From positions 206,031 to 270,030 of the forward strand of contig MNZB01000003.1 of NCBI GenBank assembly GCA_001873435.1: 64,000 nucleotides of DNA. Direction: 5' to 3'. Under the pieces are notes generated by a model. That model was not told where the DNA came from. It ran no database searches and saw nothing but the letters and a program-made list of their open reading frames with translations. Each line of letters starts with the position of its first letter. Position 1 is the first letter of the stretch. A program made the position numbers and the translations under genes. The stretch comes from Candidatus Pacebacteria bacterium CG2_30_36_39. Its GTDB lineage: Bacteria > Patescibacteriota > Microgenomatia > UBA1400 > PJMF01. Shown here piece after piece: positions 2,453 to 45,542 of this stretch.

Positions 2453-2555
2453 AGATCACCTCATGATTCTTGAATTAATCCTGTGTGTTGTGAAGGTGCG
2501 TCTTTGCGCGCTTGACTCCCATACGGGAATTGTTGCAGGCATCGACACATCTGTA

Positions 2556-2584
2556 ATTATAGCACAATAAGCCTATAATATCAA
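2556..2584 (-). promoter_or_regulatory. Sigma70-like promoter for unit A, read on the minus strand: TTGATA-17 nt-TATAAT with an upstream TG (extended -10)
   Basis: Revcomp of 2551-2590 reads ctaTTGATAttataggcttattgTGcTATAATtacag. The spacer is 17 nt. It lies about 100 nt upstream of the start at 2452. Confidence 0.5.
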
Positions 2585-2637
2585 TAGTAGAGATGTATTG
2601 GTTGAGTTTGAAAAAGAACGAAATTTATATATTTTGG

Positions 2638-2745: not shown

Positions 2746-3288
2746 TTACGCGCTGAGTTTTGAAGTCAGGGCGCGGACCTTGCGAGCCGAGGAGGTTGCC
2801 GAGCGGGACTGGCGGATGGTCTGGTTCACGAACGTCATGGAGACGGTCGCTTCCTTCTCAGCCTGTTCCATCCACTTGTCAACCTGATCGGGACTGATCT
2901 TGGCGAGTGTCAAGACCGTCTCGAACGCTTCTTGCTGTTCGCCGGCGAGGGCTTCAGCGCGTTCAGCGCGGGTCTTCATCGCGGGATATTTGTCCGCCAC
3001 GGCTTTGGCGCCGGCGAGAGCCTTGTTCAGGCGCTCGATTTCCTTGTTCGCGGTGCTGAGTTGGGACTCGAGACTGCGGACTTCGGAAATGTGGGCAAGG
3101 TGCTTCGGGAAGGAAGCGGCGATGCGACCGAATGAATCGGCATCGTGCAGGTCGGTCAGAGCGCCGAAGGCGGTCTGCAGATTGCTGGCTTCCTGGCGGG
3201 CTGCCAGGTTGGCGCGCATGGAGGCAAAGTTATCGGACAAGCCGAAAACGCCGGACGCGGGGACGATGGGTTCAAAAGTTTTGGTCAT
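2746..3288 (-). CDS. Hypothetical Ala-rich coiled-coil protein (unit B of the GC-rich module)
   Basis: 180-aa ORF at ~60% GC. An AGGAG SD lies 7 nt upstream of the ATG (revcomp of 3289-3310). It has its own promoter and terminator. The composition resembles phage scaffold or phasin-like proteins, but there is no diagnostic motif. Confidence 0.5.
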   Translation of the reverse strand: MTKTFEPIVPASGVFGLSDNFASMRANLAARQEASNLQTAFGALTDLHDADSFGRIAASFPKHLAHISEVRSLESQLSTANKEIERLNKALAGAKAVADKYPAMKTRAERAEALAGEQQEAFETVLTLAKISPDQVDKWMEQAEKEATVSMTFVNQTIRQSRSATSSARKVRALTSKLSA

Positions 3289-23169: not shown

Positions 23170-24589
23170 GAGACATATATTTTAGCACATTTTCCCCTAC
23201 TCCCAGATAGTGCTGAAGATTACTTGACTGATTAACATAATCAAAGATTATTTTTTGTTGTTCAACTGTTGTATTAATATATTTATTATGTTTAATTTTT
23301 TGACGGATTTTTTGTTTAATTAACTCGCAACTTGGACTGCAATATTCACAAGCCGCACAAGAAAAATTAGTATAAGTTTTTTCACCAAAAAAACTAAGGA
23401 TCTTTTGATGATGACATTTTTTAGTTGCAAAATATTCAATCATTACGTCTAAAGCCTGATTATTTTTATTAAGTTTTTGTTGAACAACAATATCGCTAGG
23501 ATGAATAAGTAATTCACAAAAAGACAGTTTTCTATCTCTACCAGCCCTACCTATTTCTTGCACATAATGTTCCAAACAAGCTGGTAATTGAGCATGAATA
23601 ACAAATCTCACATCACTTTTATCTATGCCCATGCCAAAGGCATTGGTAGTGACCAACAGTTTAATTTTCCCACTTAAAAATTTATTCTGTACAACTTGTT
23701 TTTCTTCAGGTTTTCTTCCAGCATGAAAGTAATCTATTTTTAATTGCTTCTCAAAATCAAATTTTTTTAGAGCCTGAAAAATTACCTCTGTTTCTTTTCT
23801 GGTAATGCAATAAATAATTCCATTTTGTTGTGTATATTTCTTTAATACTAAATAACAAAGATAGAGAAAGCGTTGGTGACGTAATGAAAAATTAGTAATC
23901 TTAATAAAGAGGTTTTTTCGTAAAAAACTACCTGCAAAAGTATTTGTTTTTAAAATGCCAAAAGCTTGCTGTAAATCGTCTATTACTCTTTGAGAGGCAG
24001 TTGCAGTCAGCAAAATTAATTTAACTGATTTGTCCAGTGATTCAATGAAATTTGGCAATTGTCTGTAGGCAGGTCTAAAGTCATGTCCCCAAAGAGAAAA
24101 ACAATGGGCTTCATCTATAGCAATTAAAGCTGGAGGATTTTCTTTAATTATTTGATTGAATTTTTTTGAAAGCAATTTTTCAGGAGAAATATAGATAAAT
24201 TTATCTTTAATGTTGGCGAAAGTTTTTGAATCAAAAGGATTTAGGCTATGAATTGCTCTAGCTGAAATATTATTTTGTTTTAAATGTAAAACTTGGTCGT
24301 CCATTAGCGCAATTAATGGTGAAATAACTAAGGTATAGTCGTTTAGGTATAGACCTGGAATTTGGTAACAAATTGATTTGCCATAGCCAGTTGGCAAAAG
24401 GGCAAGGGTTTTTTTGTTTTCTAGAACAGTTTTAATGATTTGGTCTTGAGGTTTGCGAAATTCTTTAAGTTTAAAAAACGTATTTAAGATGTTAAGTATT
24501 TTTTGGTTTTCCATATTGGCAAAATTGTATGAAATCTTCCTTGCAAGAAACCAGATCATGATGAATAATAGGAAACATGAAAGATTCAA
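23162..24589 (-). CDS. recQ: ATP-dependent DNA helicase, RecQ family
   Basis: Walker A LLPTGYGKS, DEAH (IDEAHC) and a RecQ zinc-binding region (CxxCxxC). The first 25 aa of the ORF are hydrophobic, so the true start is probably M26 (about 24514). Confidence 0.8.
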   Translation of the reverse strand: MNLSCFLLFIMIWFLARKISYNFANMENQKILNILNTFFKLKEFRKPQDQIIKTVLENKKTLALLPTGYGKSICYQIPGLYLNDYTLVISPLIALMDDQVLHLKQNNISARAIHSLNPFDSKTFANIKDKFIYISPEKLLSKKFNQIIKENPPALIAIDEAHCFSLWGHDFRPAYRQLPNFIESLDKSVKLILLTATASQRVIDDLQQAFGILKTNTFAGSFLRKNLFIKITNFSLRHQRFLYLCYLVLKKYTQQNGIIYCITRKETEVIFQALKKFDFEKQLKIDYFHAGRKPEEKQVVQNKFLSGKIKLLVTTNAFGMGIDKSDVRFVIHAQLPACLEHYVQEIGRAGRDRKLSFCELLIHPSDIVVQQKLNKNNQALDVMIEYFATKKCHHQKILSFFGEKTYTNFSCAACEYCSPSCELIKQKIRQKIKHNKYINTTVEQQKIIFDYVNQSSNLQHYLGVGENVLKYMSHE

Positions 24590-25035
24590 TTAACTTGCTA
24601 GAAAAATATAAAAACTGGGTTATGGGCTTGGCAATTTTTGGCGTTGGCTTGGCTTCTTATCTTTTTTATGAATATCTAATCCAAGATACAGCTGGAATTT
24701 GTAATATTAATGCTGTTTTTAATTGTGCTCCTATTACCACTGGTTCTTTAGCAGAGCTTTGGGGAATTCCTGTGGCCTTAATAGGTTTGGTTGGTTATGT
24801 GGTAATCTTTTTAACTGCTAAATTCAAGAGCTTTAAATGGGCGTATTACATGGCTGTTTTTGGAATGGTTTTTTGTTTAAGATTAACTATTCTTGAGATT
24901 TTTGTAGAGCATGTTTTATGTCCAATCTGTATGGCATGCCAGGCAGTAATGTTAGTTGAGTTTATTTTAACTTATCAATTAGCTTTTCCTGAAAAGGTAG
25001 GGTTAAAATCCTCCCAAGAAAAGAAAACTAAGTGA
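24577..25035 (+). CDS. VKOR (vitamin K epoxide reductase) family membrane protein; DsbB-analogue disulfide oxidoreductase
   Basis: 152 aa and polytopic. A loop Cys pair (CNINAVFNC) plus a TM CxxC (CPIC) is typical of bacterial VKOR. Confidence 0.5.
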   Translation: MKDSINLLEKYKNWVMGLAIFGVGLASYLFYEYLIQDTAGICNINAVFNCAPITTGSLAELWGIPVALIGLVGYVVIFLTAKFKSFKWAYYMAVFGMVFCLRLTILEIFVEHVLCPICMACQAVMLVEFILTYQLAFPEKVGLKSSQEKKTK

Positions 25036-30445: not shown

Positions 30446-31417
30446 TTAATTTTCGAGTATTTTATTGATAATTAATTCTATAGAAAATTCTTCTGCAGTT
30501 TGCCAAGTTATTTGGGTTTGTTTTTTCCACCAAGTCATTTGTCGTCTGGCATATTGGATTTCACTTGTAGTCCAAAGCTCGATCATTTTTTCTTGATCTA
30601 TTTCATTTTTTAGGTATTGATTAATTTCTTGGTAACCCAGTGAAGCTTTGGCAATTAAGTTTTCTGTGGAATAGTTTTTTTCAAAGTTTTTTATTTCTTC
30701 AATTACTTGTTGTTCGATTCTTTTTTTTACTCTTAGAGCTATCTTTTCCTCTAAGTTTTCTGTGGTTAATCCTATTTGAATAGTTGGAATGATTTTTTTA
30801 ATGTTATTATTTTTTGGATTATCTTTAGGAGATAAACTGATTTCTATTGCTCTAATTAAACGACGTGGATTGTTTAAATCTGAGTTGTTCATGGCAATTA
30901 ATTTATTTGGATCACTTTCAATTAGTTGATTTTGAAGTTCTTCTAGGGTTTTGGTTTCTAGTTCGGTTCTTAGTTTTTCATTTGGTTGCTGATGAAGAGT
31001 TGCTGCTGGTTGATAAATCTGTTGATGGTAAAGACCAGTGCCTCCTACAATAATAAAAATTGTTTCTGTTAAATTAGCTACTAAATTAATAACTAAGTTA
31101 TGGAAATGGCCAACTGACCATTCTTTGTCACCAGTTAAAATGCTGGTGCCATGCAAGGTTATCGGTAGTTTTTGGTGAGCAAAATATTGATAAGTTAGTG
31201 AGTCGTTTTTCTTTTTCAACCAGTTTTTTGGAATATCTGCTCCAGTGAGAATAGCGAGCTCTGAGAATACTTGTTTTGAGTCTGCGGAGATTAAAGCTAT
31301 TTTGTAGTTAGGAAATTGTTGATGGAGTTTGTTGGCAAGGCTAAGGGCTTTTTCAGTTTTACCTGTAGCTGTTTGACCGACTAAAGAAATAAATAAAGGT
31401 GTGTTACGATTAATCAC
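30446..31417 (-). CDS. miaA: tRNA dimethylallyltransferase
   Basis: 323 aa with P-loop LVGQTATGKTEKAL and a MiaA-like fold. Confidence 0.8.
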   Translation of the reverse strand: MINRNTPLFISLVGQTATGKTEKALSLANKLHQQFPNYKIALISADSKQVFSELAILTGADIPKNWLKKKNDSLTYQYFAHQKLPITLHGTSILTGDKEWSVGHFHNLVINLVANLTETIFIIVGGTGLYHQQIYQPAATLHQQPNEKLRTELETKTLEELQNQLIESDPNKLIAMNNSDLNNPRRLIRAIEISLSPKDNPKNNNIKKIIPTIQIGLTTENLEEKIALRVKKRIEQQVIEEIKNFEKNYSTENLIAKASLGYQEINQYLKNEIDQEKMIELWTTSEIQYARRQMTWWKKQTQITWQTAEEFSIELIINKILEN

Positions 31418-31449
31418 ATAGTTATTATAACTAAATAAAGGAAATACCT

Positions 31450-31890
31450 ATGTCAAGAATAATAGTTCACGATCAACAGGGTCCAGTTAAAGTTGGTGAT
31501 AAGTTTGTTTGTCAGTGTGGGTTGAGTAAAAACAAGCCATTTTGTGATAAATCTCATCTAAAAACTCTGGATGAAAAGGAAGACACTCTTTATAGCTATG
31601 ATGAAAATGGCAATCGTGAGGAGGTCGAAGAAATGATGGATGATTGTTGTTGTGGTGATTGTGATGATGAAAAATGTGAAAGTTGTTGTAGCGAGGAGCA
31701 ATGTAAAGAATGTTGTGATGATGGTTGTAAAGAATGTGGAGATGAGAAGTGTGGTTGTGGCGACTGTAAAGATTGCAAAGCTGATAAAAAAGATGATAAA
31801 TGTGGTTGCGAATGCGAAGATTGCTCTGATGATGAATGCGGTAGCTGTGACTGTAAAAAATGTGGTTGCGGCAAAGGCTGTTGTAGCTAA
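31450..31890 (+). CDS. CDGSH-type iron-sulfur domain protein with a metallothionein-like Cys/Asp/Glu-rich C-terminal tail
   Basis: The N-terminus has the zf-CDGSH signature CQCGLSKNKPFCDKSH. The C-terminal ~85 aa contain more than 30 Cys in CC, CxC and CxxC arrangements interspersed with D/E/K. The underlying DNA is internally repetitive (tgtgg/tgtga/tgatga units). Confidence 0.6.
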   Translation: MSRIIVHDQQGPVKVGDKFVCQCGLSKNKPFCDKSHLKTLDEKEDTLYSYDENGNREEVEEMMDDCCCGDCDDEKCESCCSEEQCKECCDDGCKECGDEKCGCGDCKDCKADKKDDKCGCECEDCSDDECGSCDCKKCGCGKGCCS

Positions 31891-33062
31891 ACGATTTTTG
31901 GTCGGTTGTTTAAATTGTCTTTATTAATGATTTGATCGAGTATTTCCCAACGCTTTTTTCTAATTGGGTATGGGATCTCGTCGTGATATAGGCGATGTGC
32001 TGCTGTTCCAGGTCTTGGGGAATACATAGCGACAAAGCCTACTTTCCAGTTCATTTTTTTAGCAAATTCTACTGTTTCATTAAATTCTTCATCTGTTTCT
32101 CCAGGGAAACCTACGATAATATCTGTGCCTAATACTATTTCTGGGTCTCCTGCTCTTAGTTTTTCAACTACTTTAGCATAGTCTGCGGTGGTATAACCTC
32201 GATTCATTCTATCCAAAACAGTGTTGCTTCCAGATTGAACTGGTAGATGGACATAGCGATCAATTTTTTTGTTTTTAACTATCTCTGCCACTAGTTCATC
32301 ATGGAAGTCCCAAGGGTTGCTGCTTAAAAAGCGAATTATTTTTATTTCTGGGAAAGCTGAAATTTTTTGTAATAATTCCACAAAAGGTGGAGTTCCCTCA
32401 GGTTTTAGGTATTGGGATTGGTTATTTGGAATCATTTCTCTAGTGAATTTTTCATCGCTCATTAACATTTTTCTAAGGCTAATGCCCATTTTTTCCAGTC
32501 CCCAGGAATTGACGTTTTGGCCAAGTAAAGTAATTTCGCTATAGCCTTTTTTTACTAAATCTTCAACTTCTATAATGATTTCCTCCATGCTTCTGGATTG
32601 TTCTCTGCCTCTAGAATATGGGACTATGCAGTAGGTACAAAAAGAGTTGCAGCCAGCAGAAATTGGTACCCAAGCATGTTTTTTATCTCTACGAACAGCG
32701 CTTTGATTGAAGCCAACCTCATTGACAGGCAAAATTTCATCAATGGCTGTGACCATTTCCATGATTTTGTTTTTGCCATGATGTAGCATGCAGCCAGTAA
32801 AGATTATTTTTGGTTTTGGTAAATTGCGATCAGCATATGACTTAACTACTTTAAGGACAAAAGCTCTTGCTCTGTCCTCGGCGCTTTTGCGGATGGCACA
32901 GGTATTTACCACTAGTTCATCAGTGTTATCCCAAGATTTGGCTGGTTCATATCCTCTGGCCTCGTAATCACCAGCGATTCTTTCTGAATCACTTTTGTTT
33001 GATTGGCAGCCAAAGGTGTGAATGAAATATGTTTTTTTCATAATAAATAGGACTTGAGGCAC
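31887..33062 (-). CDS. miaB: tRNA-2-methylthio-N6-dimethylallyladenosine synthase (radical SAM methylthiotransferase)
   Basis: 391 aa. UPF0004 N-domain with TFGCQSNKSD, radical SAM CxxxCxxC (CTYCIVP) and a TRAM-like C-terminus. Confidence 0.85.
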   Translation of the reverse strand: MPQVLFIMKKTYFIHTFGCQSNKSDSERIAGDYEARGYEPAKSWDNTDELVVNTCAIRKSAEDRARAFVLKVVKSYADRNLPKPKIIFTGCMLHHGKNKIMEMVTAIDEILPVNEVGFNQSAVRRDKKHAWVPISAGCNSFCTYCIVPYSRGREQSRSMEEIIIEVEDLVKKGYSEITLLGQNVNSWGLEKMGISLRKMLMSDEKFTREMIPNNQSQYLKPEGTPPFVELLQKISAFPEIKIIRFLSSNPWDFHDELVAEIVKNKKIDRYVHLPVQSGSNTVLDRMNRGYTTADYAKVVEKLRAGDPEIVLGTDIIVGFPGETDEEFNETVEFAKKMNWKVGFVAMYSPRPGTAAHRLYHDEIPYPIRKKRWEILDQIINKDNLNNRPKIV

Positions 33063-33130
33063 GAGCGGGATTCGAACCCGCGAACGAAGGTTTTGCAGAC
33101 CTCGCCATTAGGCCACTCTGGTATCGTGCC
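33057..33130 (-). tRNA. tRNA-Cys (anticodon GCA)
   Basis: The minus strand reads GGCACGA...TCGTGCC acceptor with a U73 discriminator, anticodon loop CUGCAAA and T-loop GGTTCGAATCC. Not in the ORF track. Confidence 0.85.
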
Positions 33131-45264: not shown

Positions 45265-45542
45265 ATAAGCTTCATTTTAACTCAAAAAAGCTCTACACCA
45301 AAACCAATATTGCAAAGTATGCAAAAATTCACAACATAAATAATCGCTAGTTGAGGTATAATATCCCCATAACAAAGAGATGACCTAAACTTGGTTTTTC
45401 GAAATCAGGCATGGTCAAAAAACTCACAACGGTTAAAGCCCCTCGCTGGGGAATTCGTTGTGAGTCGTACAGGGAAACTTGTGCGGGTGGAGACACCTAA
45501 ACCGGCGGGGGACTTTTGCGTCTTCCGGCCGAAAAGGCCGCA

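Follow-up and report, generated by a model that had tools for sequence, protein, structure and literature searches.

Background

To our knowledge, CDGSH (NEET) proteins have been studied intensively in eukaryotes, as donors of labile [2Fe-2S] clusters and as regulators of iron and reactive oxygen species (ROS), and their roles in bacteria are almost unknown. Here, we describe a bacterial member in which the CDGSH domain is followed by a long tail very rich in cysteine. It is encoded by Candidatus Pacebacteria bacterium CG2_30_36_39, an uncultured groundwater bacterium of the Patescibacteria, within a window of 64,000 nucleotides (nt) of contig MNZB01000003.1 (assembly GCA_001873435.1, positions 206,031-270,030 of the forward strand); this whole stretch is called the window below and all coordinates refer to it. 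The reading that we favor, as the likelier one if by no means certain, is that of a NEET-type iron-sulfur (Fe-S) protein with a metal- or cluster-buffering tail akin to metallothioneins and to the tail of SlyD.

The described CDGSH architectures comprise types 1 to 7 and fusions to Fer4_19/DUF1271 (PMC3174974, PMC5859297). Every solved CISD protein with a single motif is a homodimer with one [2Fe-2S] cluster per subunit (Lin et al., PMC3174974). The window protein most resembles these single-motif proteins (PcCISD, 3TBO, type 3; RsCISD, 3TBM, type 4; distantly mitoNEET/CISD1), with which it shares the 3Cys-1His ligands, a Ser, a Pro, an Asp and a domain of about 60 residues, and which are its best matches in the PDB by both sequence and fold. 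It departs from the CISD types by its CDKSH motif and by a C-terminal hairpin that is conserved in its own family (T39, E42, Y48-x-Y50, R56). None of the seven types bears a poly-Cys tail, or is partnered by a Cys-rich micro open reading frame (micro-ORF) of the kind described below. Type 7 proteins also join CDGSH to a second Cys-based Fe-S element (DUF1271/Fer4_19, PF06902), a likeness that depends on the predicted role of the tail, but their partner is a folded and conserved 4Fe-4S domain, whereas that of the window protein is of low complexity and variable length. Such CDGSH-Fer4_19 fusions occur among our more distant matches (P0004, L017, L037, L044). We found no literature on CDGSH proteins in Patescibacteria or the candidate phyla radiation, and nothing relevant on CDGSH proteins with Cys-rich C-terminal tails or on CDGSH genes in operons with Fur.

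For the tail, the closest described systems are of three kinds. Metallothioneins (such as SmtA/BmtA of bacteria and MymT of mycobacteria) have in common with it a Cys content of about 30%, the CC, CxC and CxxC spacing, and the lack of aromatic residues and of a hydrophobic core. In contrast to them, one-third of the window tail is Asp or Glu, and there is no detectable homology; moreover, metallothioneins are free-standing and regulated by SmtB/ArsR, whereas our tail is fused, or in relatives translationally adjacent, to an Fe-S domain. The tails of SlyD, HspA (GroES) and HypB are, like ours, disordered extensions rich in Cys and acidic residues on a folded housekeeping domain. That of Escherichia coli SlyD (...DGCCGGHGH...EGCCGGKGNGGCGCH), which binds Ni and Zn (PMC3292732), shares GCCGG with the short tails of the present family (EGGCCGGGCCGGK). 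Some relatives of the window protein have tails that end in runs of His, as in this group, but the window tail has no His and far more Cys, its carrier is an Fe-S protein and not a peptidyl-prolyl isomerase or a chaperonin, and nothing seen connects it to the maturation of hydrogenase or urease. Finally, the C-terminal domain of anamorsin/Dre2 (CIAPIN1) is disordered, Cys-rich and binds [2Fe-2S]/[4Fe-4S] clusters, and anamorsin is reported to receive clusters from mitoNEET. The likeness here lies in the Cys-rich disorder: anamorsin is eukaryotic, has defined and conserved Cys motifs, and bears no sequence relationship to the window protein.

A CDGSH protein with a poly-Cys tail

The protein has 146 residues and is encoded at 31450..31890 on the + strand, from an ATG to a TAA stop (31888-31890), with a Shine-Dalgarno-like AAGGA, read from the sequence, at 31438..31442 (+), 7 nt 5' of the ATG. 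It contains 30 Cys (24 TGT and 6 TGC codons), 23 Asp, 19 Lys, 17 Glu and 14 Gly. Three of the Cys lie in the CDGSH motif and 27 in residues 61-146. Cys makes up 20% of the codons of the gene, compared with 0.85% in the long open reading frames (ORFs) of the window. The ORF is genuine and the tail is in frame with the CDGSH domain. In the assembly collection, 118 blocks list the identical 146-residue protein (it is missing from the clustered protein collection and present in the assembly index), and three contigs from different samples (JGI 3300008086, JGI 3300025839, ENA ERZ22296795) are 100% identical to the window across 16.4 kb. The tail thus recurs in independent assemblies, which speaks against both a frameshift and an artefact of assembly, a concern voiced in the preliminary description of this locus. 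The same description had set aside two overlapping ORFs as antisense repeat artefacts. Their translations are indeed of low complexity, Val-rich or Ser/Gln-rich, and we saw no Val- or Ser-rich (frame-shifted) tail among the family members; however, only 31596..31874 is on the - strand, while 31640..31927 lies on the + strand in another frame.

The first 60 residues (31450..31629, + strand) are a single-motif CDGSH domain of the NEET type, in which a [2Fe-2S] cluster is predicted. The zf-CDGSH signature had been noticed before, and it holds against profiles: with only residues 1-61 as query, Pfam zf-CDGSH PF09360 gives 36.7 bits, above its gathering score of 29.5 (E 5e-9). Scans of the full-length protein against Pfam and NCBIfam gave no match, presumably because of the composition-bias filter of HMMER. 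The predicted cluster-binding motif (C21-x-C23-x2-S26-x3-P30-x-C32-D-K-S-H36, at 31510..31557, + strand) reads C21-Q-C23-GLSKNKPF-C32-DKS-H36 and fits C-X-C-X2-(S/T)-X3-P-X-C-D-G-(S/A/T)-H save for a Lys in place of Gly. This position varies in the family (Gly 124, Lys 29, Ser 11, and others), which makes CDKSH a normal variant. The ligands C21, C23, C32 and H36 (3Cys+1His), whose conservation the preliminary description had left to be checked, are invariant in alignments of 68 and 74 homologues, where S26, P30 and D33 are also invariant or almost so.

Structure predictions agree with this assignment. AlphaFold2 run on residues 1-63 with a deeper alignment gave a mean predicted local distance difference test (pLDDT) of 89.9 and a predicted template modeling score of 0.66, and the core has the topology beta-beta-[motif]-alpha-beta-beta. 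On the whole protein, residues 11-60 have a pLDDT of 80-85 and the tail one of 41-53; over the two models the core spans 80-96. The best PDB matches of the core by Foldseek are all CDGSH proteins: 3TBM (type 4), 3TBO (type 3), mitoNEET and 3TBN (type 6). These matches are weak (every E >0.1, TM scores of 0.3-0.5), which is not surprising for a module of 60 residues whose usual state is an intertwined dimer. With such Foldseek values, types 3 and 4 are not separable, and type 3 is the closest in having its motif near the N-terminus followed by a beta-hairpin. A sequence profile searched against the PDB retrieved 3TBN (2.7e-12), 3TBM (2.3e-7) and 3TBO (7e-5). The only match to a metallothionein model (yeast MT, E 0.042) covers the CDGSH motif and not the tail. 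Because the solved single-motif CDGSH proteins are all dimers, we infer a homodimer with one [2Fe-2S] per subunit, and thus two clusters, for the window protein, which is probably a cytoplasmic protein of the NEET type.

The tail (residues 61-146, at 31630..31887, + strand) is made up largely of Cys, Asp, Glu, Lys and Gly and is predicted to be disordered. Homologues have variable tails in its place. Among its 86 residues are 27 Cys (31%), 28 Asp or Glu, 12 Lys and three hydrophobic residues, with no His and no aromatic residue. The preliminary description had counted more than 30 Cys in the tail, whereas even the whole protein has 30; its comparison to metallothioneins on the ground of composition is nonetheless sound. 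CxxC occurs 9 times where residue shuffles give 3.9 (P=0.009). The tail thus has the makeup of a metallothionein (about 30% Cys, no aromatics or His, CxxC arrays) and, apart from the lack of His, that of a disordered Cys/Asp/Glu-rich C-terminal extension of the SlyD/HspA type. With a pLDDT below 55, no autonomous fold is predicted. The tail alone had no match among PDB sequences, nor in Pfam and NCBIfam even at E<=10, and the 64-kb window has no other Cys-rich coding segment.

It had also been proposed that the coding DNA is internally repetitive and that the tail expanded by slippage. We compared the tail DNA with 2000 codon shuffles and found no excess of repetition: the longest exact repeat is 13 nt, for a shuffle mean of 12 (P=0.31), and neither duplicated 9-mers (P=0.19) nor duplicated 12-mers (P=0.22) stand out. 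Tandem Repeats Finder and a repeat finder reported only degenerate units, with 66-71% identity. As the repetition is no greater than codon composition predicts, recent slippage is not supported as the origin of the tail, and we set it aside on this test. The indels seen across the family nonetheless show that tail length changes often over evolutionary time.

A family with tails of very different lengths

Searches with the protein and with an alignment of the first hits retrieved 1205 proteins at E<=1e-3 in a collection clustered at 90%, and 377 representatives of 50%-identity clusters at E<=1e-10. The family is also present in at least 459 metagenome loci. It is found mainly in Patescibacteria, with source names, some of them of species-representative genomes, such as Woesebacteria, Collierbacteria, Roizmanbacteria, Paceibacterota, Azambacteria and 'Patescibacteria group', and its members, wherever the sources name them, are labelled 'CDGSH iron-sulfur domain-containing protein' or 'iron-binding protein'. 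The genomes of Patescibacteria are tiny, with few genes recognised as serving metal homeostasis, and this family may be one of their main small proteins for handling Fe-S clusters or metals.

Family members have 58-158 residues, of which the first 60 or so are well conserved (core consensus MPRLVKKTAHGPxxVGDKxICMCGLSKNQPFCDGSHxKTLDE..LYxYDExGKRE) and the remainder is hypervariable. A search for the fusion in other genomes had been suggested; across the family, the C-terminal tails carry 0-27 extra Cys. When we counted the Cys after the core in 191 family-like sequences, 55 had none, 10 had 1-3, 113 had 4-7, seven had 8-14 and six had 15 or more. The 27 Cys of the window protein are the maximum seen and its tail is the longest version. 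Tails with 4-7 Cys typically end in EGGCCGGGCCGGK or ECCGKCDDNCCKE. Alignments of the long tails are poor, with many indels even among close relatives, but the composition of Cys, Asp, Glu, Lys, Gly and Ser is kept; some finish in runs of His, such as HHHDHGHGHSH in P0107. With this range of tails, the family is also a natural series in which to study the binding of metals or clusters by disordered Cys arrays.

The Cys-rich module as a separate micro-ORF

The closest relatives of the window locus keep its gene order (Mur ligase, BacA, MscS-like channel, miaA, X, miaB, a 242-residue protein, Ogt). In locus L046, MiaB is 86% and the CDGSH core 69% identical to those of the window. Yet the CDGSH protein of these relatives has only 67 residues and ends with KE(C/G)CCCC, and the Cys-rich module is found in an uncalled micro-ORF within the 180-230 nt that separate miaA from the CDGSH gene. 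Two variants of it were found, both on the + strand of their loci and both missed by gene callers: one of 46 residues with 12 Cys in L046 (MCGTCDEHNKKGGACPDCKKESCECSDKKCSCCGHKDCDGSCCKKE, 2484..2624), and one of 30 residues with 9 Cys in the lineage of L131-L136 (MCGTCDEHNKKETCSCCSHEGCDGSCCKKE, in L131 at about 2905..2997). Both have an AAAGG ribosome-binding site and a stop 3 nt before the CDGSH ATG (TAAtttATG). They differ by one in-frame indel of 16 codons, and their last 18 codons differ by 7 synonymous and 3 nonsynonymous changes, with all Cys retained. The predominance of synonymous changes, the conservation of the Cys and the in-frame indel all suggest that the micro-ORF is a translated gene under purifying selection.

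This pair of fused and split forms is the strongest evidence that we have from sequences, and it argues for a functional Cys-rich module working with the CDGSH domain. No further stand-alone Cys-rich copies came up when all other loci were scanned, and no database homologue was found for either peptide; the L046 peptide had no match in Pfam or in an index of 5.8 billion proteins, and its exact sequence is absent from the collection. Gene callers overlook such ORFs of 30-46 residues, left unannotated, and with them a part of the system.

The same evidence bears on the idea that the tail is a neutral expansion, a tolerated run of TGT/GAT/GAA codons without specific function. Its poorly conserved positions, its indels among close relatives, the existence of tail-less members and the fact that this stretch is open in other frames too are all compatible with such an origin. 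We nevertheless regard it as improbable, as the same Cys and acidic composition recurs in all three context clades of the family (see below), the frame in use is always the Cys frame, the DNA lacks excess repetition while CxxC is enriched, and the stand-alone ORF of the closest relatives changes mostly at synonymous sites and keeps its Cys. The fused/split pair, in particular, speaks for a functional module that partners the CDGSH domain and against neutral slippage.

A Fur-family partner

In four distinct species, a Fur-family gene lies directly downstream of a long-tail CDGSH gene and on the same strand (L004, 1238..1597; L048, 4489..4848; L127, 1579..1953; L129, 1175..1534). The encoded proteins have 119-124 residues, and the gaps of 0-27 nt between these co-oriented genes imply their co-transcription. 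This is the only clear operon partner of the family, and it suggests a role in general metal or redox homeostasis.

In the window, miaA and the CDGSH gene are 32 nt apart, and most of this spacer is taken up by TAGTTATtATAACTA (31419..31433, no strand assigned), a perfect inverted repeat whose 7-1-7 layout is that of Fur-family boxes. We treat it as a candidate operator and as a lead only: its half-sites match the Bacillus subtilis Fur/PerR consensus at only about 4 of 7 positions, and the miaA/CDGSH gaps of nine loci contain locus-specific inverted repeats with no conserved operator among them. Taken together, the regulatory neighborhood of the long-tail genes is suggestive.

The Fur-family homologue scores under every equivalog cut-off, and almost equally on the PerR and Fur models. 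The latter point would suit a rather unlikely alternative, in which the tail is a thiol or redox buffer, that is, a sacrificial reductant or a scavenger of ROS and metals, which a PerR-like regulator would control in an anaerobe poor in antioxidant systems. Small Fe-Cys redox proteins are co-transcribed with PerR in anaerobes, as in the rbr-perR-rdl genes of Desulfovibrio, and CDGSH clusters are redox- and pH-labile. However, with such scores the class of the regulator is not assignable, the gene is missing from the window, and the conserved neighborhood contains no peroxidase, rubrerythrin or thioredoxin as partner. Moreover, this idea overlaps with metal buffering instead of excluding it.

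A possible metal- or cluster-buffering role

On the reading that we favor, that of a buffering tail on a NEET-type protein, a Cys/Asp/Glu-rich appendage without a fold of its own would have been added to the C-terminus of a CDGSH protein. Having no hydrophobic core and no predicted fold, the tail would gain structure only around its ligands, so that its 27 thiolates and 28 carboxylates would fold only around bound metal. Judging from its composition, the tail probably binds metal or additional Fe-S clusters. It could hold or buffer large amounts of Fe(II) or of such clusters, or possibly of Zn, Ni or Cu. The core, with its labile 3Cys-1His [2Fe-2S] cluster, might sense the redox state or iron and hand clusters to client Fe-S enzymes, among which the neighboring MiaB would perhaps be one and not necessarily the sole one.

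Several points weigh against this reading. One-third of the tail is acidic, which is not common in metallothioneins, and the window protein lacks the His found in the tails of SlyD and HspA. The tail belongs by sequence to no described metallothionein family, and no homology to any of them or to a solved structure was found. About 29% of the retrieved family members lack a tail, which is thus dispensable for the function of the core. The three other contigs are identical to the window and give no polymorphism from which to assess selection on the tail. The split arrangement is confined to one lineage with two sequence variants. The link to Fur is likewise confined to one clade, no Fur-family gene occurs in the 64-kb window, and scores cannot assign the homologue to Fur, PerR or Zur.

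The family introduces no new principle. It adds a presumed Fe-S/metal module that is common, unstudied and open to experiment, with an unusual fused/split architecture, in a bacterial radiation that is poorly understood. The tail of 0-27 extra Cys, the module that can be fused or carried by a micro-ORF, and the co-transcription with a Fur-family gene are testable handles on metal buffering.

Genomic neighborhood

The CDGSH gene stands between two tRNA-modification genes. On one side, miaA (tRNA dimethylallyltransferase; 30446..31417, - strand) is divergent from it across the 32-nt gap; the protein matches Pfam IPPT at E 7e-40 and scores 129 on the NCBIfam miaA equivalog, below the cut-off of 148.65. 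On the other, a radical-SAM methylthiotransferase of the MiaB/RimO family (31887..33041, - strand, the start at 33041 following the gene callers) is convergent with it, and the two genes overlap by 4 nt at the CDGSH stop. The enzyme scores 343.6 on TIGR00089 (cut-off 251) and 314 on the MiaB equivalog (below the cut-off of 355). With 384 residues, it consists of UPF0004 and Radical_SAM only, with no TRAM domain even at E<=10, and its relatives have 383-388 residues. The location between miaA and miaB had been described before, and both genes do flank the ORF; however, both are on the - strand, one divergent and one convergent, and the CDGSH gene therefore shares no operon with either.

We examined the context of 89 family loci, which form three clades by their neighbors. 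A divergent trmD lies upstream in 17 of them (e.g. L006, L008, L045, L047, L049), dnaB is upstream on the same strand in another 17, and a divergent miaA is upstream in 6, to which look-ups of more long-tail proteins added further loci. Direct adjacency to miaB occurs in three of the 89. All tails with at least 18 Cys whose locus was read belong to the miaA-linked clade, where adjacency to miaA holds down to a MiaA identity of 33-38%. The commonest order in this clade is miaA(-), CDGSH-tail(+), fur-family(+), nudix(-), xseB(-), xseA(-), tRNA-Cys(+), miaB(+), found in L004, L048, L127/128 and L129, and in L011 and L125 without fur. The order from miaA through fur, nudix, xseBA and tRNA-Cys to miaB appears to be ancestral, in which case the arrangement of the window is derived, the segment from fur to xseA being missing and the tRNA-Cys-miaB unit inverted. 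We also observed that, with trmD (m1G37) and miaA, two clades pair the CDGSH gene with enzymes acting on position 37 of tRNAs, which may be a coincidence.

This context is relevant to the earlier proposal that the protein is a dedicated helper of MiaB, supplying or repairing the sacrificial auxiliary [4Fe-4S] cluster of its neighbor, or relaying sulfur to it. NEET proteins are known to donate clusters. The order miaA, X, miaB, tRNA-Cys of the window recurs in L046, L057 and L131-136, every long-tail locus with an identifiable upstream neighbor has miaA there, even the divergent ones, and the tRNA-Cys-miaB pair lies within about 4 kb in L011, L048 and L125. On the other hand, the CDGSH gene is on the strand opposite to both mia genes, MiaA requires no Fe-S cluster, and most family loci are next to trmD or dnaB with no mia gene near. 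In relatives, fur, nudix and xseAB intervene before miaB. The few loci in which miaB is adjacent or within about 4 kb all fall in one clade, so that the linkage could be inherited synteny. The persistence of the adjacency to miaA and the tRNA-Cys gene next to miaB favor some link to the mia genes; a role dedicated to MiaB, weakly supported at best, seems to us unlikely.

A tRNA-Cys(GCA) gene (33056..33130, - strand) lies directly 5' of miaB, a pairing that is conserved in L011, L046 and L048. Its anticodon loop carries A36-A37-A38, which is the MiaA determinant (PMC5699536). One may thus imagine a translation sensor, in which the 30 UGY codons would tie synthesis of the protein to tRNA-Cys carrying the A37 modifications of MiaA and MiaB (i6A/ms2i6A37). 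The output would then report MiaA/MiaB activity, and hence Fe-S status, an extension that we find as hard to credit as the sensor itself, though both are compatible with a buffering tail. The 20% of Cys codons in a genome using 0.85% Cys, the flanking miaA, miaB and tRNA-Cys(GCA) with its determinant, and the conserved order of tRNA-Cys then miaB would all fit, as would the finding that iron limitation lowers ms2 formation and alters decoding in E. coli (PMC5699536). This is purely circumstantial, the clustering of a tRNA gene with modification genes may be coincidental, and other clades with Cys-rich tails have no mia genes; the sensor is accordingly among the most improbable of the explanations considered here.

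An elaboration that we hold to be very unlikely joins miaA, the poly-Cys CDGSH gene, miaB and tRNA-Cys(GCA) into a self-referential iron/Fe-S circuit. In this circuit, the ms2i6A37 state of tRNA-Cys would be determined by MiaA and by MiaB, which depends on Fe-S clusters; this state would gate the translation of an ORF with 20% UGY codons, and the product of this ORF would store or donate iron and Fe-S clusters. Relatives would add a Fur-family regulator on the transcript, and the Cys-rich module could be a separate micro-ORF. If true, this would be a metal-sensing device based on codon bias in organisms with minimal regulatory repertoires.

Two other explanations were considered and rejected. 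The tail region could have been the remnant of a TRAM domain lost by MiaB and encoded on the other strand. We discarded the idea because the antisense translation is of low complexity, with Ser/Gln/Pro, and because TRAM-less MiaB proteins of 383-388 residues are the rule in relatives where miaB is not beside a long tail. The protein could also have been a precursor of a ribosomally synthesized and post-translationally modified peptide (RiPP) of the SCIFF/ranthipeptide type. We rejected this reading because its N-terminus is a conserved folded Fe-S domain and because the neighboring radical-SAM protein belongs to the MiaB/RimO family (UPF0004 and Radical_SAM) and lacks SPASM.

Two further elements of the window deserve mention. 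Some 6.5 kb upstream from the CDGSH gene, at about 24577..25035 (converted from positions 1128..1586 of L001), lies a gene of the VKOR (vitamin K epoxide reductase) family, which means that this small genome encodes a disulfide-forming enzyme. Further downstream, at 45382..45497 (+ strand), we identified a LOOT RNA (Rfam RF03000) with a score of 77 bits, for a gathering score of 46.4.

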